Counted from the first letter of the stretch, positions 5,231-19,938 are shown. The stretch: DNA of 49,440 nucleotides from Acidobacteriota bacterium (GCA_003222845.1 QHXG01000166.1:1-49440), one strand, 5' to 3'. Notes: generated by a model from the sequence alone, not told the origin. Program-made: numbers and translations.

Positions 5231-5554
5231 TCACGGATTCTTTGGCGTCACCGAAAGCGCAGGCGCCCGGCGTGGTGCGCTCGAATGCCAATGCACAATG
5301 CGCCAGCCGCCGTTGCGTTTTTCGAGAATTGCCGTGCCAAGTCCGCCGCCATCAACGTGTCGAGTCTTGCCGTTGTCCATAAAATCAGCGGCAATTGTGT
5401 ATTTCAGGGTCGCCCATGCTGTATTACCGGCAAGATGAATCTTTATATCGCTGAATTCGTATTTCGTGTTCTTCATCTCGCCCATTTCAGGAACGAGATG
5501 ATGTTCGCGATAGTCCGCCCAGCCATAATTAGCGTGGCCGCTCTCAAAGATCAT
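5231..5554 (-). CDS. NTF2-like (SnoaL/DUF4440-type) protein
   Basis: 107 aa. 'GNTAWATLKY...GGLGTAILEKRNGGWRIVHWHSS' is typical of the DUF4440/SnoaL-like fold. A signal-peptide-like 20-codon ORF with a good SD sits upstream in another frame (see findings). Confidence 0.6.
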   Translation of the reverse strand: MIFESGHANYGWADYREHHLVPEMGEMKNTKYEFSDIKIHLAGNTAWATLKYTIAADFMDNGKTRHVDGGGLGTAILEKRNGGWRIVHWHSSAPRRAPALSVTPKNP

Positions 5555-5641: not shown

Positions 5642-6070
5642 CTACTTTCGTTCCCAAGAAAGCAGCGCCACTCCACTGATCGTTAATAAGGTGCCGGCGA
5701 TTTTCATCCAACTCATGCTTTCACTTAAGAAGAGCCAGGAAAGGAAAAGCACCAGCAGGACATAGCTGGTAGAAATCCCAGTAGCCATTCCGACCGGAAG
5801 CTTCGACAGCGACAGCACAAAACAAATAGAGCCAAGCGCCATTAATAGTCCGATCGGTGCTCCTAACGGCAAAGCTTTGGTTGGAACGGTGAGACTGCCT
5901 TGTTTGATCCACAGGGCCGGTATCGCGGTGACTGCCATGCCGATCGCCATCAGAAAGTTCACTTGATACGGGTTCAACTGTTTCATGCTGAACTTCTCGA
6001 GAAATGAGGCGACGCCGACCATTACGATGTAGCCAGCCAGAAAGCCAAACCCAGACAGTGATGTATTCAT
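5642..6070 (-). CDS. small EamA/DMT-type membrane transporter (single EamA domain)
   Basis: 142 aa with 4-5 hydrophobic helices and an EamA-like pattern ending 'TLLTISGVALLSW'. Confidence 0.55.
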   Translation of the reverse strand: MNTSLSGFGFLAGYIVMVGVASFLEKFSMKQLNPYQVNFLMAIGMAVTAIPALWIKQGSLTVPTKALPLGAPIGLLMALGSICFVLSLSKLPVGMATGISTSYVLLVLFLSWLFLSESMSWMKIAGTLLTISGVALLSWERK

Positions 6071-6098: not shown

Positions 6099-8042
6099 TC
6101 ATGGCTTCGAAGGCATCTTCTCTTCGTTTGATTTCATGTTCCCGTGCATTCCGTGCATCTTTCCCATCTCCATCTTGCGGGGACGGATTCGGAAAAACAG
6201 ACGCCACGAAACAGGATGGTTGCCGTAGAACTGATCGAGCACGGGAGGCTTTGAATAGAACGTGAGATCGCTTCCGAAGCCCATCGAGAGTCTGTCCGAC
6301 TTCCAAATGTCTCGGACGCCGCCGAAGGTATAAGCGCCGATGCGAAAGCTGGGATGGTCCTGCTTTATTCCCAGCTTGGCGCGCTCTGCCGGACGCAATA
6401 GATCGTCTTTGTCCACCAGTTCCAGCCGTGTGTACAGATAATTCCTGTCGAGGAAATTGACTGTGGACTCGGCTGTATAGCCATTTAGGTTTCCAACCTT
6501 ATCCGGACTATTAAGATGGTTGCGGCCCCAGATGACGCTCGTGGCCCAGTTGCCTCGATTGAATGGCTTGTTGTAACTGATGGACGCCGTAGTGCGGCGC
6601 ACATCGCCGGACTCTAACGTCTCTGGATGTCTGAGAAATCCGTAGCTCACTTGCATTGACCAGTTATTGTTTGGCTCAAACGAGAATCGCGCCGCACGAG
6701 AGTTCCATGGATGGGCCTCGAAGTTGTAACGATTCTCGTCCGGCTCTCTGCCGTTGAAGATCGAGCCTTCCACCTTGAACCAGCGATAGGTGAAGCCCGT
6801 CGTGAAAACGCCAAAACTGATGTGAGTGGAATCCTGAAGGTGATGCGACAGCGCCGCCGATGGATTCTCCGAGGCCGAAGCGCGATGCATGAATGCAGTT
6901 GGCCCAAGCGCCGGCTCGCCCGGATAGCCAAGATAAGTGAACCAGGTTCCGCGTTCGCCCAGCGCGACCGTGTACTGCGCCGACAGCTCCATCCAAAGAT
7001 CGTGCGGGTGCTGGCGATCGACTAGCGGCTGGCCCTTGAAAGTCTCTCCGGTTTGGAAAAGTAACGGCGAGCCTCCGCGAGCAAAAGTAAACGGCTCAAA
7101 ACTAAACATGCCGCGCAATTGCAGGGTCCCGTTGCCGAGTTTGTGAAAGGCCATCGGCATAAACCAGTTGACTGATTCGAATTTCGTGGTTCCTCGTGGT
7201 CCCCCTTGTGAGTTGATGCCGATGACTGCATTGTAGTGAAGCATCAAGAGCCATTTGCCCGCGATTTTATCAACCATGTGCATAGGCGATGAGGTGGGCT
7301 GCCAGGAAGTCCCAGATCCCATCTGTCCAAGATTCATCACATTGGCTTCACTGGCCCCGACTCGCACGCCCATACCTTCGCCAGACATCACCATTAGCGG
7401 CCCCATGTTCATATTCATTCCGCCCATGTCCATGCCGGGCATTTGACCCATCGGACTTGCTGATGGACTCGCTCCGGGCATCGGCATATTCATTTCCATC
7501 TTCGGTTGCGGAGAAGCTTGTGGATTTGGGGATGCTGACGGCATTTGCATACCGGGCATGTTCATCTCCATCTTCTGCGGCGATGCTGATGGCGATGGAC
7601 TTGTCTGCGGCATATTCATTCCCGGCATGTTCATTTGTTGCGGCGAAGGCTTAGGCGTCGGTGACTTTTTAGTCGCTGGCATTTCCATTCCGGGCATCTT
7701 CATTCCCGGCATATTGCCCATTTGATGTTTCGTGGTTGGCTTTTTTCGCGTAGTCCGATTCTTTCGCCGGGTATGTTTGTGCATTCCAGACATATTCATT
7801 CCGGGCATGTTCATGCCAGGCATGTTGGCCATGTTGTGTTTCTTTTCCGGCTTTCCTTTTTTGGTCGCGGTTCTTTTCTTTCGGCTCTTGGGTTTGCTCT
7901 TGCTCATGTTCATTCCACGCATGTTCTGCATGCCTTGGCCTTGAGCGATAGTACTGTCAGTTGAAGTAAGTACTAAGCCGGAAAAAATTATTGCGCTTAA
8001 CCCAACTATACGGACGGAAGCGCCAAAACCTGACCTCTTCAT
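6099..8042 (-). CDS. Met-rich outer-membrane beta-barrel-like protein (CopB/PcoB-like in concept, family not recognised)
   Basis: 647 aa. After a signal peptide comes a ~200-aa low-complexity region with about 44 Met in MPGMNM/MEMNM repeats, interspersed with Lys/Arg and Ser/Pro tracts. A ~400-aa Gly/aromatic-rich domain follows, then a Met/His tail 'MEMGKMHGMHGNM'. AAGGGGG SD lies before the ATG. Confidence 0.7.
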   Translation of the reverse strand: MKRSGFGASVRIVGLSAIIFSGLVLTSTDSTIAQGQGMQNMRGMNMSKSKPKSRKKRTATKKGKPEKKHNMANMPGMNMPGMNMSGMHKHTRRKNRTTRKKPTTKHQMGNMPGMKMPGMEMPATKKSPTPKPSPQQMNMPGMNMPQTSPSPSASPQKMEMNMPGMQMPSASPNPQASPQPKMEMNMPMPGASPSASPMGQMPGMDMGGMNMNMGPLMVMSGEGMGVRVGASEANVMNLGQMGSGTSWQPTSSPMHMVDKIAGKWLLMLHYNAVIGINSQGGPRGTTKFESVNWFMPMAFHKLGNGTLQLRGMFSFEPFTFARGGSPLLFQTGETFKGQPLVDRQHPHDLWMELSAQYTVALGERGTWFTYLGYPGEPALGPTAFMHRASASENPSAALSHHLQDSTHISFGVFTTGFTYRWFKVEGSIFNGREPDENRYNFEAHPWNSRAARFSFEPNNNWSMQVSYGFLRHPETLESGDVRRTTASISYNKPFNRGNWATSVIWGRNHLNSPDKVGNLNGYTAESTVNFLDRNYLYTRLELVDKDDLLRPAERAKLGIKQDHPSFRIGAYTFGGVRDIWKSDRLSMGFGSDLTFYSKPPVLDQFYGNHPVSWRLFFRIRPRKMEMGKMHGMHGNMKSNEEKMPSKP

Positions 8043-8145
8043 AATTCCCCCTTTGAACCTCTTCGCATAAATAAAGAAAGCTGACGAGAACGCGCACGAA
8101 GGCGCGCGTCCGCGTAAATCAGTTAGCGACGTTCAAATTAGGGAA

Positions 8146-8682
8146 CTAAATTCTGAAGACGTTGATTAGAACGTAGCGGGGGAACGAATTGCCCGGTGGC
8201 CCGTGTTCCAACGGTGTAATGGGAACGAGAGCGGAAGGCGAAGCCATTGCAAAGTCTGCCGGCGGCGCGTTTGTCTCAACCAATCGCTTCGAAGGATCAA
8301 CTGCGACGACGGTCGCGGTTACTGATATTGGCTGTGAATGCATCAAGCAATGAGGACAAGCTTCACCAGGATGATCCAAGGCATCTGCGTCCGCATTCGA
8401 ATCATTCGCCCCGTCTGTCTGGGCAACGGGGGCATCCGTGTCTCCCTGGGCGTTGTCCATAGATTCCATTTGCATGTCCGGCATATCCATGCCACACGTT
8501 CCCGCGTGTGATTCCAGTGATATCGGCTGATGTGCGGAATGTTTGAAGCTGCGAACGTGATTCTGAGTGAAGTGGGGGCAAAAGGAGGCTAACAGCATGT
8601 TGCCCCACGCGCTGGAAAGCAACGCAATAACGATGATAAGGGTAAACAACACCCGCTTTCCCACCGTTGCCATTGTTCGCAT
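8146..8682 (-). CDS. N-terminally anchored Cys/His/Met-rich protein, putative metal-binding, no family recognised
   Basis: 178 aa with one N-terminal hydrophobic helix and the motifs 'CPHF', 'HAGTCGMDMPDMQMESM' and 'CPHCLMHS'. Same strand as the Met-rich barrel gene and directly upstream of it. Confidence 0.6.
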   Translation of the reverse strand: MRTMATVGKRVLFTLIIVIALLSSAWGNMLLASFCPHFTQNHVRSFKHSAHQPISLESHAGTCGMDMPDMQMESMDNAQGDTDAPVAQTDGANDSNADADALDHPGEACPHCLMHSQPISVTATVVAVDPSKRLVETNAPPADFAMASPSALVPITPLEHGPPGNSFPRYVLINVFRI

Positions 8683-8872
8683 GCTAAAGTTTAAGGTCGT
8701 GGACCTACTCTAACACGCAACAACTTAAGCAACCAAGGACAGCGGGCCTGAAGACTTAACTCTTCTTCGCTGGCGCAGAATTGATTGACTCTCTCGCTCG
8801 CTACTTGCGAGCAAGGAAATCGCAGAAGCCACGGCGCGCAACGGTTTGGTCTGACGCGGGCTCGTCGAATGG

Positions 8873-9061
8873 CTACATTTTCATCTTTTTCTTACAGCAG
8901 GTCGCGTTTTTCTTTTTGCAACAGGCCTTACTATGGTTCTTCCCACAGCACGACTTCGCTTTTCCCGCGGCCGCCGGAGTATTGGCCAGGGCTACGGAGG
9001 AAGCTGCCATTAGCGCCGCCGCGCAGACAAGGCTCATTGCAACTGCTTTGATTTTTCTCAT
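8873..9061 (-). CDS. exported Cys-doublet/Lys-rich mini-protein (metallothionein-like)
   Basis: The start is moved to the second ATG (9059-9061), because AGGAG lies 9 nt upstream of it while the first ATG abuts the SD. The 62-aa product has signal peptide 'MRKIKAVAMSLVCAAALMAASSVALA' and then '..KSCCGKNHSKACCKKKNATCCKKKMKM'. Confidence 0.65.
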   Translation of the reverse strand: MRKIKAVAMSLVCAAALMAASSVALANTPAAAGKAKSCCGKNHSKACCKKKNATCCKKKMKM

Positions 9062-9228
9062 TTCGCGCATCTCCTAGTAAAAACTTGGTGAAAAACAGTT
9101 CGGAAGTGACAGTGAAACCCGCGACAGCTGGTTGTCTTGCGACTCCTCATGAACCGTCCTGTTCACTGACATTGGCGGGAGTCTACCGCGAGGCGGTTCG
9201 GATGTCGAGGTTTTTTTGGTCTGCTGGA

Positions 9229-9258
9229 GGTGATCTAAATCACACAAATTAGATCACC
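9229..9258. promoter_or_regulatory. 10-bp perfect inverted repeat GGTGATCTAA-N10-TTAGATCACC between the two CC-peptide genes (operator or hairpin candidate)
   Basis: 9229-9238 is the reverse complement of 9249-9258. There is no U-tract on the minus-strand side, so it is not a canonical terminator. Confidence 0.35.
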
Positions 9259-9311
9259 AACGTTGGACCAGTGTGGCAATCATACACTAGCTTTGCCTGA
9301 CTACCGGCTAA

Positions 9312-9539
9312 CTACTGCTTCGGCATCGGGCACGACTTTCCGCAGCAACACTCGCCCTTCGCTTTGTCCTTGCAGCAGGCGTGGTTTTTCTTCTTGCAGC
9401 AAGTCATCCGTTTTTTGCAACAGCCCTTCATCGCGCAACACGACTTGGCGTAAACCAGATTCGTACCGAAGGTCGCAGACGCGGCCATCAACGTCGCGAC
9501 GCAGGCAAGACTGAGTGCAACTGCTTTGACTCTTCTCAT
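9312..9539 (-). CDS. exported Cys-doublet/Lys-rich mini-protein (paralog of 8873-9061)
   Basis: 75 aa with AGGAGA SD. Signal peptide 'MRRVKAVALSLACVATLMAASATF..' is homologous to the paralog. The mature part is 'KSCCAMKGCCKKRMTCCKKKNHACCKDKAKGECCCGKSCPMPKQ' (12 Cys, 12 Lys, no aromatics). Confidence 0.7.
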   Translation of the reverse strand: MRRVKAVALSLACVATLMAASATFGTNLVYAKSCCAMKGCCKKRMTCCKKKNHACCKDKAKGECCCGKSCPMPKQ

Positions 9540-9555
9540 TTCAGGTCTCCTGTGG

Positions 9556-9578
9556 TGAGTTGCAGAAATAGCAACTCA
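9556..9578. promoter_or_regulatory. 8-bp perfect inverted repeat TGAGTTGC-N7-GCAACTCA abutting the SD of the CC-peptide gene
   Basis: 9556-9563 is the reverse complement of 9571-9578. It lies within about 20 nt upstream of the AGGAGA SD on the minus strand. Confidence 0.35.
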
Positions 9579-9732
9579 GGAAATAGGTTGTTTCAAAGCC
9601 GGCTAACCGAAATATCGAACCGGAGTCTAACTCGAAGCGGTGATTTTGTCGAGAAATTTCTGGAGGTTTATGCCAATGTTTTGTTTGGTGTTGAAGCAAT
9701 TTGAGACTCTGTTCCCCATACGCTGTCGCAAC

Positions 9733-10470
9733 TCAGCCTGACAATTTCTTCACGCGCGGCGGTTCGTATTGCTCGCCGTATTCCGGGTACTCGATCGTTT
9801 TGATCGATCCGGGCCGCGTGTCGTCGGTAAGAAGTTCCAGCGCGTCGCGCAAGACTTGCTTCTGCAATTCGCGCATGCCGGGGCGGCCCAAGCTGTTTCC
9901 CACCTTGAAGCCTTTGGGATAGAGAGCGCGCGGCGGTCGCATCTGCGCCGAGACTTCCGGGCTGACCGTAATCAGCACCGTCGGGATGCCTTTCATTTCA
10001 ATTTCGCGTTGGACCGCCACGACCGTGCGGTGACAGACGTTCGGTCAACCACCCGTGAGCACGACCGCATCGGCGCGCGAGGTTTTGTCGATATCGTTGG
10101 CAATTTCGCGCGCCGTGCCTTCATACATGGCTTTCAATTGCATCGTGTAGCCCATATAGCCGATGTGCTTTTTTGCGATGCCACCGATGAAACCTTCCGC
10201 TTCCAAATCGCGCAGCACATCGATGGGAAATACGACGTTGATGTCCTGATCGGCGTCGGTGTGATCGTAGTGGTGATGCGTCACCATCAACTGTGATGAA
10301 TCAACATCGGGCAAGATTTCCCGATACGTCAGGTCGCCAAGTTCGTCGGCAATATTGAAGGGCTCTTGATCTTTTAAATGAACTCCCCCGGCAGTCACGA
10401 TCGCAAGCGTGCTCTTCGATAGCTCACGCTCAAATGGCGTGAAGGGAACGCATTTTCTCGAGATGGTCAT
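9733..10470 (-). CDS. GrdB-family (glycine/sarcosine/betaine/D-proline reductase selenoprotein B-like) selenoprotein with in-frame UGA
   Basis: Track ORFs 10045-10470 and 9733-10020 are in the same frame, separated only by TGA (10045-10047) and 8 sense codons. The read-through gives '..AVVLTGG-U-PNVCHRTVVAVQREIEMKGIPTVLITVS..MRPPRALY..GRP', 245 aa, matching my recollection of short GrdB-like proteins with U/C before 'PN.C'. A GC stem-loop candidate ACCGC-N9-GCGGU lies at 10013-10031. Confidence 0.75.
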
Positions 10471-10768: not shown

Positions 10769-11233
10769 TTACAGCTTCCTCAAGACTTCAAACAAATCTT
10801 CATTGTCCGGCTGATCCGAAATGTTGTGGATGTCTTTGTAGGCGAGCTTGCCTTCCTTATCCACAATGAACAGCGCGCGTTCGGAGATTCCATCGTTAGC
10901 GCGGTAAGCGCCGTAAGCTTTAGCGACTTCGCCTTTGGGATGAAAGTCGCTTAGCAGGTCATAGGAAAGCCCGCCGAGACTCTTGGCCCACGCGCTGTTG
11001 CACGGGACGCTGTCAACTGAAATGCCCAGGACCTGAGCATCATAGCCCTTGAAGCGTTCGAGGTCAGCCTCGTACGCGGGCATCTGCGCCGTTCAAACCG
11101 GTGTCCAGGCCAACGGATAAAACGCCAGCACCACATTTTTCTGGCCTCGGAAATCCGAGAGCTTCACCTTCTTACCTTTTTCGAGATTACTCCCGAGTTC
11201 AAAGTCCGGAGCCACGTCTCCAACTTCAGGCAT
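10769..11233 (-). CDS. peroxiredoxin (AhpC/TSA/BCP-type) with selenocysteine at the peroxidatic position
   Basis: The track shows only the C-terminal 104 aa. Extending in frame across TGA (11093-11095) to ATG 11231-11233 gives '[13 protein letters not shown]...[40 protein letters not shown]', the canonical PxxxTxxC motif with U for C. Hairpin CGUACGAGG-cuga-CCUCGAACG lies at 11055-11076, 16 nt 3' of the UGA. Confidence 0.8.
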
Positions 11234-11370: not shown

Positions 11371-11853
11371 TCAGAGGCGTTCGGGCGAAGAAAGCCGCCG
11401 AGATTTTCTCCGTCGCCAACCTTCGCGACATCGAGTGACGTGCTGTGGATGTTGAATCTCGGTAACATACGTTAATGCCTTTGTTAGGTTTTCATAACGG
11501 GAGGCGATTTGTTGCGGTGTGATTTTTGTCAGATCAGGAGCGAGATGTTCCCTTACGAACTCTAGACGATCTTTCCATTTATCAAGTAGTCCCACCTCTC
11601 GAAGCTCGTTGTGAATGTCCTCGAGTCGCTCCAAGATCGGATTAGTAAGTGGAGGCAAAATCGAATTAGTAATAACGTGAATATGATCAGGCATGATGAC
11701 ATAGGCATACAAGGCGAACTGACCGGATCGTCTTGCTTCGTCGAGAGCTCGACAGGTAACCAGTTTGATTTCGTCGGTACGGAAAACTGGTAAACGATCT
11801 TTAGCCACTGACGTGAGATAGAAGCAAGGAGAGTCTCGGGAGATTACATGCAT
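11371..11853 (-). CDS. IS200/RayT-like Y1 (HUH) transposase N-terminal domain with atypical C-terminus, probably degenerate
   Basis: 160 aa. 'FYLTSVAKDRLPVF...YAYVIMPDHIHVI' is the HUH (HIH) motif of Y1 transposases and REP-associated tyrosine transposases. I see no recognisable catalytic-Tyr helix. The 3' end runs into a repeat copy (11374-11440). Confidence 0.6.
   Translation of the reverse strand: MHVISRDSPCFYLTSVAKDRLPVFRTDEIKLVTCRALDEARRSGQFALYAYVIMPDHIHVITNSILPPLTNPILERLEDIHNELREVGLLDKWKDRLEFVREHLAPDLTKITPQQIASRYENLTKALTYVTEIQHPQHVTRCREGWRRRKSRRLSSPERL
11374..11440. repeat. ~65-bp dispersed repeat, copy 1 (direct with 12101-12162)
   Basis: 'gaggcgttcgggcgaagaaagcc...tttctccgtcgccaaccttcgcgacatcgagtgac' aligns with 12101-12162 at roughly 75% identity with one 4-nt gap. 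Confidence 0.7.
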
Positions 11854-15973: not shown

Positions 15974-16507
15974 ATGACCGCGACTGAAGTCTTCGAATCG
16001 GTGACGAACGGCGGCAGCAGCGACTTCGCTCTGCTGGTTTCCATATTGAATCATCACGGGCGGTGGTGTCTGATTGGCGGACTGGCGGTCAATTGTTATG
16101 TCGAGCCGGTTTTCACGCTCGATGCCGATGTCGTCGTTGTTTTGGATGAGTTGAGTGCAATCGAGAAGGAGTTGACCGCGGCAGGTTTCTCGGTAAAGGA
16201 ATTTCCGCATTCGCTAAATGCGAGCGTGCCTGGAAGTCAACTTAGAATTCAGCTCACGACTGATCCACGTTATCAAGAGTTCTTGAACGGCACAGCGATA
16301 AGAGAGGTCCTCGGTGAACCGGTACCGATAGCATCACTGGCCGATGTAATCCGTGGAAAGATTTGGGCCTGGAGTGATGAAAAGCGCCGGCCGACAAAAC
16401 GAAAAAAGGATGAACTTGACCTGATGCGAATCCTTGAAGCGTATCCAGGAACGCGCAAGTTAATGCCGCGAGAGATTGTCGAACAAGTGCCGGAATCGGA
16501 CATGTAG
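15974..16507 (+). CDS. small nucleotidyltransferase-fold protein (minimal NTase-like)
   Basis: 177 aa. 'CLIGGLAVNCYVEPVFTLDADVVVV' resembles the GG..(n)..D.D signature of minimal nucleotidyltransferases (MNT / AbiEii-like). It is inserted between the thiolase and acyl-CoA dehydrogenase genes. Confidence 0.45.
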   Translation: MTATEVFESVTNGGSSDFALLVSILNHHGRWCLIGGLAVNCYVEPVFTLDADVVVVLDELSAIEKELTAAGFSVKEFPHSLNASVPGSQLRIQLTTDPRYQEFLNGTAIREVLGEPVPIASLADVIRGKIWAWSDEKRRPTKRKKDELDLMRILEAYPGTRKLMPREIVEQVPESDM

Positions 16508-19467: not shown

Positions 19468-19938
19468 ATGTACCGAGTCTTTTTAAGTTACAACACACCG
19501 GATGAAATGACCGTGGTCTGGCGGTTGCAGACATTGGCTGCGGCATCTGGCTTGCACTTGGACGTTTTGAATGATCGCCAACGATCAGATCCTGCCAAGG
19601 TAACCAAGACAATCGATGATGCTGATTCTGTGATTGTGTTCCTGACTCAGCAACCAACCTCGCAAGTAAAAAGAGAGCTTTCATACGCACTGAAGCGAGA
19701 CAAGCCAGTGATTCCAATTGTTGAGATCGGGACAACGACGTCGCAGATCAAGCCTTTACTCCAGCACTCTGGAATTCCGGTTTTTGAACTCGACCCTCGT
19801 AATCCGGGACGGATGGAGAGCAGCCTTGCCGGATATCTGCAAAAACAAAAATACGATAAAGATACGAAGAATGCTCTATTGGCTTTGGCAGGTGCCTTTG
19901 TTGGTCTGTTCCTGTTAGATAAGCTCGCTGAGAGCTAA
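19468..19938 (+). CDS. TIR-like domain protein with C-terminal transmembrane helix
   Basis: 156 aa. 'YRVFLSYNTPDE', 'ADSVIVFLTQQPTSQVKRELSYALKRDKPVIPIV' follows the bacterial TIR_2 pattern (FLSY start, S..V..EL helix with a candidate catalytic Glu, IPI strand). The C-terminal 'ALLALAGAFVGLFLL' is hydrophobic. Confidence 0.6.
   Translation: MYRVFLSYNTPDEMTVVWRLQTLAAASGLHLDVLNDRQRSDPAKVTKTIDDADSVIVFLTQQPTSQVKRELSYALKRDKPVIPIVEIGTTTSQIKPLLQHSGIPVFELDPRNPGRMESSLAGYLQKQKYDKDTKNALLALAGAFVGLFLLDKLAES

Follow-up and report, generated by a model that had tools for sequence, protein, structure and literature searches.

Background

The passage of copper across the outer membrane is among the least-settled steps of bacterial copper homeostasis. 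To our knowledge, PcoB/CopB and OprC/NosA are the only dedicated copper barrels that have been described, and the direction of transport through PcoB is disputed. Here we consider a module of four consecutive open reading frames (ORFs), all on the minus strand from position 9539 down to position 6099, in a stretch of 49,440 nucleotides (nt) from an Acidobacteriota bacterium (GCA_003222845.1 QHXG01000166.1:1-49440). This whole stretch is referred to below as the window, and coordinates are counted from its first letter. The four genes encode two small exported peptides with multiple CC doublets (hereinafter, CC-peptides A and B), a 178-amino acid (aa) protein that we call the partner, and a 647-aa protein with a predicted outer-membrane beta-barrel. 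We argue that the module is, on balance, probably a system for buffering Cu(I), perhaps also Ag(I), in the cell envelope and for its transit through the outer membrane, one that follows the logic of the Pco/Sil systems but is assembled from non-homologous parts.

The parallel lies in the division of labor: in Pco/Sil, a barrel with a tail (PcoB) is accompanied by sponges (PcoE/SilE) and chaperones (PcoC/CusF), and every part encoded in the window is non-homologous to these. The small Sec-exported periplasmic Cu(I)/Ag(I) buffers and shuttles of the PcoE/SilE and CusF/CopC kinds fill the role that we propose for the peptides and the partner. In PcoE/SilE and CusF, the ligands are Met and His (and Trp) and clusters of Cys are lacking, whereas the buffering proposed here would be thiolate-based rather than Met/His-based. 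PcoB itself (7PGE) has 12 strands and ~220 barrel residues, and the paper that reports its structure concludes that PcoB facilitates Cu uptake (PMC9210255); the N-terminal Met/His-rich region of PcoB is required for Cu resistance (PMC12509749).

Among Cys-rich peptides, bufferins are, as far as we know, the only Sec-exported ones described for copper; similarly, all bacterial metallothioneins known to us, with the exception of PmtA, are cytoplasmic and lack signal peptides. The Csp proteins are four-helix bundles. PmtA has been reported at the cell surface (PMC11237414). Bufferins (BufA1/DUF2282, BufA2) are Sec-exported, Cys-containing copper chelators that belong to the RiPPs, peptides made by the ribosome and modified after translation; the bufferin operon also codes for an MNIO (DUF692) enzyme and a DUF2063 partner, which turn the Cys into thiooxazoles (PMC11626156). 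A literature search for the module, for exported bacterial metallothioneins and for the accessions of cultured homologues returned no description of the system considered here.

Results and discussion

Architecture of the barrel protein

An earlier note on this DNA had pointed to four minus-strand genes, and an ORF check found all of them; most of the traits that the note ascribed to their products can be substantiated as well. The two pre-peptides are indeed paralogous, with mature parts made of CC doublets in a Lys-rich, aromatic-free context, as borne out by tblastn and by composition counts; the Cys/His/Met motifs of the 178-aa protein can all be read at the expected residues; the figure of ~44 Met is roughly right for the repeats of the 647-aa protein (we counted 40 in residues 35-230); its Met/His tail corresponds to residues 621-647; and the domain that the note called barrel-like is backed by a high-confidence AlphaFold2 model and by porin matches in the Protein Data Bank (PDB). 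No profile match was found that would place any of the genes in an unrelated, already characterized pathway: at E<=1, neither Pfam nor NCBIfam matched the barrel protein or either peptide, and the 178-aa protein had no NCBIfam match, its single Pfam match, to RecG_wedge at E 0.096, being dismissed as noise.

The barrel gene is preceded, at a distance of 5 nt, by a GGGGGA-type Shine-Dalgarno sequence, and its product consists of a signal peptide, a Met-rich disordered region, the barrel core and a C-terminal tail (Table 1). Altogether, the protein contains 59 Met, of which 40 fall within residues 35-230, 12 in the core and 6 in the tail. The 196 residues of the Met-rich region also include 29 Pro, 21 Lys, 4 His and seven copies of MPGM, with no aromatic residues and no Cys; a Met content of 20% over such a length is far outside chance. 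Across the Blastocatellia homologues, as judged from the consensus, this region is kept in kind but not in sequence. The tail has 2 His along with its 6 Met in 27 residues, and, over 103 representatives of the family, the combined share of Met and His is 11.9% in the N-terminal regions and 18.9% in the C-terminal tails, compared with 6.7% in the core.

The AlphaFold2 model of the core was built with 104 diverse representatives, replacing a run with 26 close homologues that had reached a predicted local distance difference test score (pLDDT) of 52.8; the final model has a pLDDT of 89.8 and a predicted template-modeling score of 0.88. It is all-beta, with 18-19 DSSP strands over ~370 residues. 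The best Foldseek matches in the PDB are 16-stranded general porins, namely, BpsOmp38, Omp32, OmpF and OmpK (E ~5e-10, probability 1.00); over all porin matches, the E-values range from 5e-10 to 6e-8, the TM-scores from 0.5 to 0.67, and the identity from 8 to 12%; for OmpF, Omp32 and OmpK, the target-normalized TM-scores are 0.57-0.67. The 18-stranded OccD channels are matched as well. At the level of sequence, the porin families (Porin_1/Porin_4/OprD) in Pfam and NCBIfam did not match the barrel protein, and the CopB model of Pfam (PF05275) matched neither this protein at E<=1 nor any of 10 distant homologues; these ten had no Pfam match at all apart from one cytochrome c fusion. In a search of the PDB sequences, the single protein found no match and the family profile found none at E<=10, 7PGE included.

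The strands of the core model are joined by connections that alternate between short (2-5 residues) and long, some of the long loops containing helices. By the usual rule for outer-membrane proteins, short connections are periplasmic turns and long ones are outer loops; in porins, such long loops fold into the lumen. The strongly conserved motifs of the barrel (PLLFQTGET, DRQHPHD, GEPALGP, FMHRxSAxENP, HHLQDSTH and FNGREPDENRY) all map either to long loops or to an additional hairpin. Among 104 sequences that are ~40% identical, Q344, H345 and H407 are invariant, and H347, D348, H386, R387, H400, H401 and D404 are each present in 94-103. Under this topology, the six near-invariant His would lie in the lumen of the barrel.

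With PcoB/CopB, the 647-aa protein shares an outer-membrane beta-barrel that follows a poorly conserved, disordered, Met/His-rich periplasmic N-terminus and, in its relatives, a copper-resistance neighborhood. However, the CopB and PDB profile searches revealed no sequence relationship between the two, the core of the 647-aa protein is larger (~390 residues, 16-18 strands) and porin-like, the His-rich loop cluster and the additional C-terminal Met/His tail set it apart, and there is no PcoA/CopA multicopper oxidase partner in the window or in the 85 related loci described below, where no ORF carries the motif HCHxxxHxxxxM. With the porins that it matches best in structure (OmpF, OmpC, Omp32, OmpK36 and OccD/OprD), it shares an arrangement in which the turns at one side are short and the loops at the opposite side long; it differs from them by far more conserved loop motifs, by tails of a metal-binding type and by linkage to copper genes.

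For the C-terminal 443 residues, more than 8,000 close homologues, with 73-99% identity, were found in metagenome-assembled genomes (MAGs) of Blastocatellia/Pyrinomonadaceae from soil metagenomes, every one labelled 'hypothetical'. A HMMER search of 1.84 billion cluster representatives delineated a family of 3,211 clusters (50% identity) at E<=1e-3, of which 727 are found at E<=1e-30. In some members, the Met-rich region is replaced by another domain: SCO1/SenC in P0181 (E 1.8e-30) and cytochrome c in P0232. Since these N-terminal fusions are periplasmic modules, the N-terminus of the barrel should face the periplasm; the fusions also tie the family to copper and redox chemistry. Four other members (P0128, P0189, P0270 and P0156) start with a duplicated domain containing 16-17 Cys. 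This domain, seen in several lineages, is ~100 residues long and shows 8 conserved Cys in each copy (GRYSCC..C..C....C.C......GKGVCG.C..GW..G.G); it is not matched by Pfam and may represent an undescribed periplasmic metal-binding domain.

The core is conserved to an extent unusual for a porin (73-88% identity within Blastocatellia), with nine residues, including S427 and R452, invariant at ~40% identity. An alternative that has to be considered here is that the barrel works as a metalloenzyme or a redox module of the outer membrane, with the His/Asp/Ser/Arg cluster as a catalytic metal center and the partner and the peptides as substrates or maturation factors; it might, for instance, oxidize Cu(I), reduce Cu(II) or pass electrons. 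With six conserved His, the cluster could accommodate more than one copper, some homologues have a fused cytochrome c or a cytochrome c gene as a neighbor, a cytochrome b gene lies downstream of the distant homologue P0176, and one family member shows a weak similarity to MtrB/PioB (E 0.07). However, this last match is far below threshold, cytochrome fusions are rare among the 104 representatives, no similarity to known outer-membrane enzymes was detected, the top Foldseek matches are diffusion porins, and tails rich in Met are what one expects of proteins that traffic Cu(I) rather than of enzymes. An enzymatic function thus appears improbable, and we prefer to view the barrel as a channel for copper.

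The partner protein and the organization of related loci

The partner of the window belongs to a family of which the characteristic features are an N-terminal signal or anchor, the motif FCP(H/R), a Met-rich patch, the motif CxHCxxHS and the C-terminal segment EHGPPG..PR(H/Y)VLINVFRI. In the window protein, these are represented by FCPHF (residues 34-38), HAGTCGMDMPDMQMESM (59-75) and CPHCLMHSQ (109-117), and seven residues, C35, P36, H59, C109, H111, C112 and S116, are invariant among 14 orthologues. Sites with small residues come after the hydrophobic stretch at the N-terminus (in orthologues, AWG before N and AAA before F), and the orthologues share (A)AAFCP(R/H); judged by eye, a cleaved signal peptide would suit this pattern as well as an anchor. 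The family comprises 107 clusters, one of which bears the generic JGI label 'uncharacterized protein involved in copper resistance'. The DUF2946-like Pfam model suggested in the earlier note did not match the 178-aa protein, nor was there any Pfam match for a partner orthologue or for the two other kinds of partner introduced below.

When one genome was scanned for each GTDB species, a barrel homologue was detected at 431 loci, and the best 80 of the 431 were fetched, all of them from Blastocatellia or Pyrinomonadaceae; five more came from exact-protein look-ups, for a total of 85. Where at least 1.5 kb of upstream sequence is available, a partner gene of one of two types lies directly upstream of the barrel gene in ~65 of the 68 loci, the exceptions being L014, L019 and L071. 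A lack of co-occurrence in related genomes, which the earlier note had named as a ground for refutation, was thus not what we observed. In 43 loci (type 1), the upstream gene is an orthologue of the 178-aa protein, as identified with a hidden Markov model. Most other loci (type 2) have a different upstream pair, so that the order is partner, exported peptide, barrel. The type-2 partner is ~170 aa long and contains a lipobox-like W-AGAGC, HDCC, M-DCPL and a C-terminal LPNRGHTYLRCCVFLI; the type-2 peptide is an exported protein of 87-170 aa with the repeats CCAMxSCCCKGDSCxMK and CCCCGGDSCDMKMK.

Homology between the type-1 and type-2 partners was considered and rejected (hhalign probability 4.5%), as was homology of the type-1 partner to its counterpart in Sphingobium (see below), to which it has no detectable similarity; hence, we call these proteins analogous, not homologous. 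In several cases, two barrel loci, sometimes of different module type, are found within a single MAG (L006/L044, L022/L031, L024/L041, L045/L060 and L011/L061), which shows that the barrel family is multi-copy within genomes.

Exported CC-peptides

The predicted mature part of peptide A comprises 44 aa, including 12 Cys, 12 Lys and 5 CC doublets, and that of peptide B comprises 36 aa, with 6 Cys, 11 Lys and 3 CC doublets; neither contains an aromatic residue. The Cys content of 27% over the 44 residues of peptide A is far outside chance, and that of peptide B is 17%. The cleavage sites were judged by eye from the sequence, after MRRVKAVALSLACVATLMAASATFGTNLVYA and before K in one peptide, after MRKIKAVAMSLVCAAALMAASSVALA and before N in the other. 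A lipoprotein reading of peptide A, suggested by the 'SLAC' string, was rejected because that Cys is not conserved in the orthologues, whereas AxA-type cleavage sites are.

The two peptides are 51% identical (tblastn E 5.5e-11), and their genes sit in a tandem duplication with a spacing of ~444-478 nt that includes a promoter-like element. The signal-peptide DNA (repeat D2) is 80% identical over 65 nt, and a 42-nt direct repeat (D4; 9622-9663 and 9178-9219) is 71% identical. The promoter scan yielded 2 sites compared to 3.0 expected by chance, so that the count is meaningless, and only the duplication of the element together with the peptide genes is of note. An AGGAG lies 8 nt upstream of the start of peptide A; in the case of peptide B, AGGAG directly abuts the first ATG of the ORF, and the real start is therefore probably the second ATG. 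The stem-loop between the two genes (Table 1) may serve as a hairpin at the end of a transcript or as a palindrome to which a protein binds.

Peptide A is 58% identical to the peptide found in L003-5 (E 4e-16) and has clear orthologues in four type-1 loci (L012, L013, L033 and L061), with the common ending CCCKGDSCPMPNKK. The CC-peptide family as a whole comprises 904 clusters, all unnamed and without a Pfam match. In nearly all type-2 loci, CC-peptides are encoded between the partner and the barrel. Among type-1 loci, only ~8 (L003-5/L012, L013, L033, L041 and L061) have them within 10 kb of the barrel; in loci of this type, to which that of the window belongs, the peptides are an optional addition to the other two components. 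Two minus-strand hits of the peptide screen, in L064 and L082, were discarded as spurious Arg/Cys-rich ORFs. Other exported, extremely Met-rich small proteins or lipoproteins are encoded near barrel homologues in L031 (13370..13627, plus strand), L094 (8268..8723, plus strand) and L092 (316..807, plus strand), examples being ...NMNMKNMNRKDMKNMKMGNMNMGKKKP and a 151-aa lipoprotein of Pontibacter with 21% Met and His; these proteins may be Met-based counterparts of the CC-peptides.

How do the CC-peptides compare with the known Cys-rich metal binders? They resemble metallothioneins (SmtA/BmtA, MymT, PmtA) and Csp in a Cys-rich, aromatic-poor make-up suited to metal-thiolate clusters, and differ in having Sec signals, in the small size of the mature peptides (36-44 residues) and in being very rich in Lys; the metallothionein profiles of Pfam and NCBIfam matched neither A and B (E<=1) nor the type-2 peptides. 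A further tie to Csp is that Csp/DUF326 genes neighbor distant barrel homologues. PcoE/SilE is set apart by the 17-27% Cys, arranged in CC doublets, of the window peptides, which show no similarity to any Pfam or NCBIfam model. Like bufferins, the CC-peptides are ribosomally made, Cys-containing, equipped with Sec signals and presumably periplasmic, and a protective role under copper stress, known for bufferins, is proposed for them here; they differ from bufferins in the CC doublet/Lys pattern, the DUF2282/BufA models of Pfam and NCBIfam do not match them, and neither MNIO (DUF692) nor DUF2063 is among the Pfam matches of the window ORFs or of the genes called in L001-L005.

The patchy presence of the peptides raises the question of whether the four genes form one system in the first place. 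The barrel could be a general or nutrient porin, as its fold is that of general porins, and the CC-peptides could be unrelated toxins, bacteriocin or RiPP precursors, or structural peptides, given that they have promoter-like elements of their own and an intergenic hairpin and are missing from most type-1 loci, and that some distant barrel homologues are found in non-metal contexts. The near-constant adjacency of partner and barrel, the position of a peptide gene between them in nearly all type-2 loci and in Sphingobium, the absence of RiPP maturase, MNIO enzyme or immunity genes from the Pfam matches in the window, and the enrichment of copper genes reported in the next section all argue against such a dissolution of the module, which we consider highly improbable.

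The copper context

The relatives of the module are embedded in a conspicuous set of neighbors. A P1B-ATPase is encoded within 10 kb of the barrel in 49 of the 85 loci (tblastn), and 34 of 40 P1B-ATPase ORFs contain CPC, N..YN..P and MxxSS, the remainder being truncated; we take this combination to be the Cu+/Ag+ P1B-1 signature of the Argüello classification. A CPC-type ATPase is present in 34 of the 70 non-redundant loci with downstream sequence and directly follows the barrel, on the same strand, in 8 of the 70. Pumps of the resistance-nodulation-division (RND) type occur in 23 loci, together with OEP, CzcB/CusB-type adaptors and YtkA, and all the RND pumps found contain, in transmembrane helix (TMH) IV, the motif AIGVLVDAGIVVTEN (which includes VDAGIVVTEN) that, in our estimation, resembles the CusA type rather than the Czc or AcrB types. 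A random 20-kb neighborhood would have a P1B-ATPase ~1% of the time by our own rough estimate, and the enrichment of copper genes near the barrel is far above this value.

The module extends beyond Acidobacteriota. A tblastn search of the PLSDB plasmids found three barrel homologues with 42-48% identity. On the plasmids of Sphingobium baderi and Sphingobium sp. YBL2, the partner, the CC-peptide and the barrel occur together, in the order divergent MerR-family regulator, glutaredoxin-MauE fusion, partner, exported peptide, barrel, DUF305. Here, the partner is 112-114 aa long, with an N-terminal hydrophobic segment followed by HCPGM/HCADM, FCGLC/ACALC and HGPAPPPPRIA, and the exported peptide has 64-74 aa and contains AGCCADAPCCKEGTDPCKDGKSCC or DCCKGMECCKNDAECCKDGKGDCCKD. 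In strain YBL2, the genes are TZ53_RS24090 to RS24070 of plasmid 3pYBL2-3. The regulator ends in C-x7-C-PII, presumably a CueR-type monovalent-metal loop, with no extra Cys of the ZntR/MerR type. (The P1B-1, CusA and CueR signatures were all applied from the literature rather than with a curated tool.) On a plasmid of Pontibacter akesuensis, the order is copper P-type ATPase, Met-rich lipoprotein, barrel, and a DUF326 four-helix-bundle copper-binding protein, with the genes numbered A0W33_RS20310 to RS20295. One distant metagenome homologue is located after CusB-CusA and before a YHS protein, and the neighborhood of P0176 includes Csp, a BlaI/BlaR-like pair, cytochrome b, DUF305, SnoaL_3 and a P-type ATPase.

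The earlier note had stated that the layout does not match the classical systems and that a P1B-ATPase, a multicopper oxidase, an RND pump and a metal regulator are all missing from the window. When the large ORFs throughout the window were scanned with Pfam, none of these was found, in agreement with the latter statement. Nevertheless, the module is not independent of the classical systems, among which it is usually embedded in relatives. The note's assumption that the ligand is a soft metal is strengthened by the neighbors seen there, namely, P1B-ATPases, Cus-type RND pumps, YtkA, YHS, Csp/DUF326, DUF305 and the CueR-like regulator, with additional support from the fusion of SCO1/SenC to the barrel, and its suggestion of an envelope sequestration or transit route for thiophilic metals is supported as far as sequence analysis reaches.

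Should the metal be copper? It could be argued that the copper genes nearby are merely part of general metal-resistance islands, which commonly mix specificities, and that the module handles Cd(II), Zn(II), Hg(II) or a metalloid: peptides so rich in Cys and Lys are reminiscent of the metallothioneins for Cd/Zn, and the RND adaptors match Pfam models named after CzcB. The discriminating signatures, however, all point in the other direction. The ATPases have the Cu+/Ag+ signature and not that of Zn/Cd/Pb pumps, the TMH-IV motif of the RND pumps is Cus-like and not DFG..DGA, the Sphingobium regulator loop is of the CueR type, no mer genes were seen, and the MxM/MxxM tracts, YHS, YtkA, Csp, DUF305 and SCO1 are all copper-associated. 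A thiophilic metal other than copper or silver therefore appears more improbable still than the enzymatic alternative discussed above.

A more serious contender is copper supply rather than copper defense. In this scenario, the barrel would import Cu, and the tails, the partner and the peptides would pass it on to Sco-type chaperones for the assembly of CuA and NosZ. The SCO1/SenC domain fused to the N-terminus of one homologue fits such a role, as do the cytochrome c fusion and the cytochrome c gene that neighbors a homologue. TlpA-like thiol-disulfide oxidoreductases are encoded in 34 of the 85 loci, and TlpA reduces ScoI and CoxB during CuA assembly in Bradyrhizobium. Some P1B-ATPases serve cuproenzymes, and PcoB has been judged to be a facilitator of Cu uptake (PMC9210255). 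On the other hand, the Cus-type RND pumps, Csp/DUF326, DUF305 and the CueR-like activator are hallmarks of responses to excess copper, no cytochrome oxidase or nos genes were found beside the module in the Pfam-annotated loci, and high-capacity Met- and Cys-rich binders suit the buffering of an excess better than the supply of traces. We consider a supply function rather unlikely, although a stronger alternative than the others, and continue with buffering and transit of excess copper as the preferred interpretation.

A tentative mechanism and its weak points

The emerging scenario can be outlined as follows. Cu(I) would reach the periplasm via the P1B-1 ATPases or by leakage from outside. There, it would be captured by the thiolate-rich peptides, which would buffer it in the manner of metallothionein or PcoE/SilE, and also by the Met-rich tails of the barrel, both of which should face the periplasm given that the N-terminal fusions in the relatives (SCO1, cytochrome c) are periplasmic. 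The partner would act as a chaperone through its N-proximal Cys-Pro, the CxHC and the Met patch, and may dock to the barrel by its conserved C-terminal strand. The metal would then exit the cell through a constriction formed by the six near-invariant His, along with Asp, Gln and Arg residues, in the loops folded into the lumen. Thiol reductases of the TlpA-like or glutaredoxin-MauE kinds, encoded nearby in relatives, could keep the periplasmic cysteines reduced.

In its strongest form, this hypothesis would mean that unmodified, Sec-exported, metallothionein-like peptides carry Cu(I) in the periplasm and hand it over, via the partner, to a hitherto unrecognized family of His-lined outer-membrane channels, in a system that shares no homology with Pco, Cus, Cop or bufferin. 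Thousands of soil Acidobacteriota would have this system, and a reduced form of it would exist in Alphaproteobacteria, Bacteroidota and, probably, Gemmatimonadota. We advance this complete version only tentatively, as a possibility that is clearly less likely than the general assignment to copper buffering and transit.

Several considerations weigh against the interpretation of the module as a copper buffering and transit system. The periplasm is oxidizing, and the CC doublets could form disulfides instead of binding metal. The CC-peptides are absent from most type-1 loci, the window itself lacks a metal sensor, an ATPase or an RND pump, and two other distant barrel homologues are found in contexts without an obvious metal link. 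The placement of the conserved His in the lumen is deduced from the parity of strands and loops, not from coordinates, and the notion that the partner types, the Sphingobium version included, would play the same role is based on position and motif architecture. More generally, the functional assignments all derive from sequence, context and predicted structure, and the module might serve sequestration, efflux or uptake. Transit through the barrel might proceed in either direction; the structure of PcoB has been interpreted in favor of uptake (PMC9210255).

Surroundings of the module

The features of the module and of its vicinity are collected in Table 1. The other large ORFs of the window encode, according to Pfam, functions in fatty-acid oxidation and the shikimate pathway, a helicase, a protease and toxin-antitoxin genes. 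Rfam found nothing in the whole window at gathering thresholds and, in the module region at E<=1, two sub-threshold chance matches only, with no known riboswitch or SECIS (selenocysteine insertion sequence) model.

Table 1. Positions of the module genes, their parts and neighboring features in the window
Feature	Position	Strand	Basis or remark
Barrel gene, 647 aa	6099..8042	-	ORF
Signal peptide of the barrel protein, residues 1-34, ending ...TIAQ before GQG	7941..8042	-	read from sequence
Met-rich intrinsically disordered region, residues 35-230	7353..7940	-	composition; low pLDDT at model start
Porin-like outer-membrane beta-barrel core (predicted), residues 231-620, 16-18 strands	6183..7352	-	AlphaFold2 model, Foldseek
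Met/His-rich C-terminal tail, residues 621-647, RKMEMGKMHGMHGNM...	6102..6182	-	composition
Type-1 partner protein, 178 aa	8146..8682	-	ORF; directly upstream of barrel gene
CC-peptide A, 75-aa precursor, Sec-type signal peptide	9312..9539	-	ORF; mature part KSCCAMKGCCKKRMTCCKKKNHACCKDKAKGECCCGKSCPMPKQ
CC-peptide B, 65-aa ORF, shorter paralogue of A	8873..9070	-	ORF; probable start 9061
Promoter-like element TCGACA-N17-TAGACT, upstream of peptide A	9624..9652	-	consensus match only, within duplicated unit
Promoter-like element, second copy, upstream of peptide B	9180..9208	-	consensus match and duplication
Perfect 10-bp stem-loop without U-tract, between the peptide genes	9229..9258	-	dG -13.8 kcal/mol, z -3.06
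SnoaL_3/DUF4440-like gene remnant	5231..5554	-	Pfam SnoaL_3 E 1.1e-11; ~70 N-terminal residues gone
PrdB/GrdB-like reductase gene	9733..10470	-	in-frame TGA 10045-10047, codon 142, context LTGG-U-PNVCH
AhpC/TSA peroxiredoxin gene	10769..11233	-	in-frame TGA 11093-11095, AWTPV-U-TAQ
IS200-like Y1 transposase, weak match	11371..11853	-	
AbiEii-like nucleotidyltransferase toxin	15974..16507	+	
TIR-domain protein	19468..19938	+	

On the downstream side, the SnoaL_3 remnant is 80% identical to its orthologue in L003, a protein of 177 aa with a signal peptide, which is included in the part that was lost here. A SnoaL_3 homologue is found within 10 kb of the barrel in 26 of the 85 loci, in addition to the one near P0176. 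Between the remnant and the barrel gene, a half-size EamA/DMT transporter gene (142 aa; 5642..6070, minus strand) occupies the place of other genes in the orthologous loci, and this points to a rearrangement of the region.

Directly upstream of the module lies the PrdB/GrdB-like gene. The two halves around its in-frame TGA both match TIGR04483 PrdB, so that the product is probably a selenocysteine protein, in a host lineage of aerobic-soil Acidobacteriota. In the next gene, AhpC/TSA, the in-frame TGA is located exactly at the position expected of the peroxidatic Cys, and this gene would be a probable second selenoprotein gene. Homologues are encoded within 10 kb of the barrel in 6 of the 85 loci for PrdB/GrdB and near the barrel in 7 of the 85 for AhpC/TSA, with both selenoprotein-like genes present in four loci; for neither of the two genes of the window did an Rfam SECIS model match. 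Within 10 kb, the module is also flanked by the transposase, AbiEii-like and TIR genes, and a Y1_Tnp gene is found near the module in L003-L005 as well; these neighbors hint at mobility of the region.

Conclusions

The families encoded by the module are undescribed, and its relatives have copper/silver efflux genes as neighbors; taken together, these observations probably reflect a mode of envelope copper handling that has yet to be described. The module thereby offers a candidate answer to the question of how copper crosses the outer membrane in a dominant phylum of soil bacteria, and the exported Cys-rich peptides, with their ~900 clusters, would be the first unmodified periplasmic metallothionein-like buffers. 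Because homologous operons are carried by plasmids of cultivable Sphingobium and Pontibacter, the hypothesis is directly testable by genetics. Given that Blastocatellia are abundant in dry, oligotrophic soils, the module may matter for the copper tolerance of soil communities under agricultural Cu inputs.

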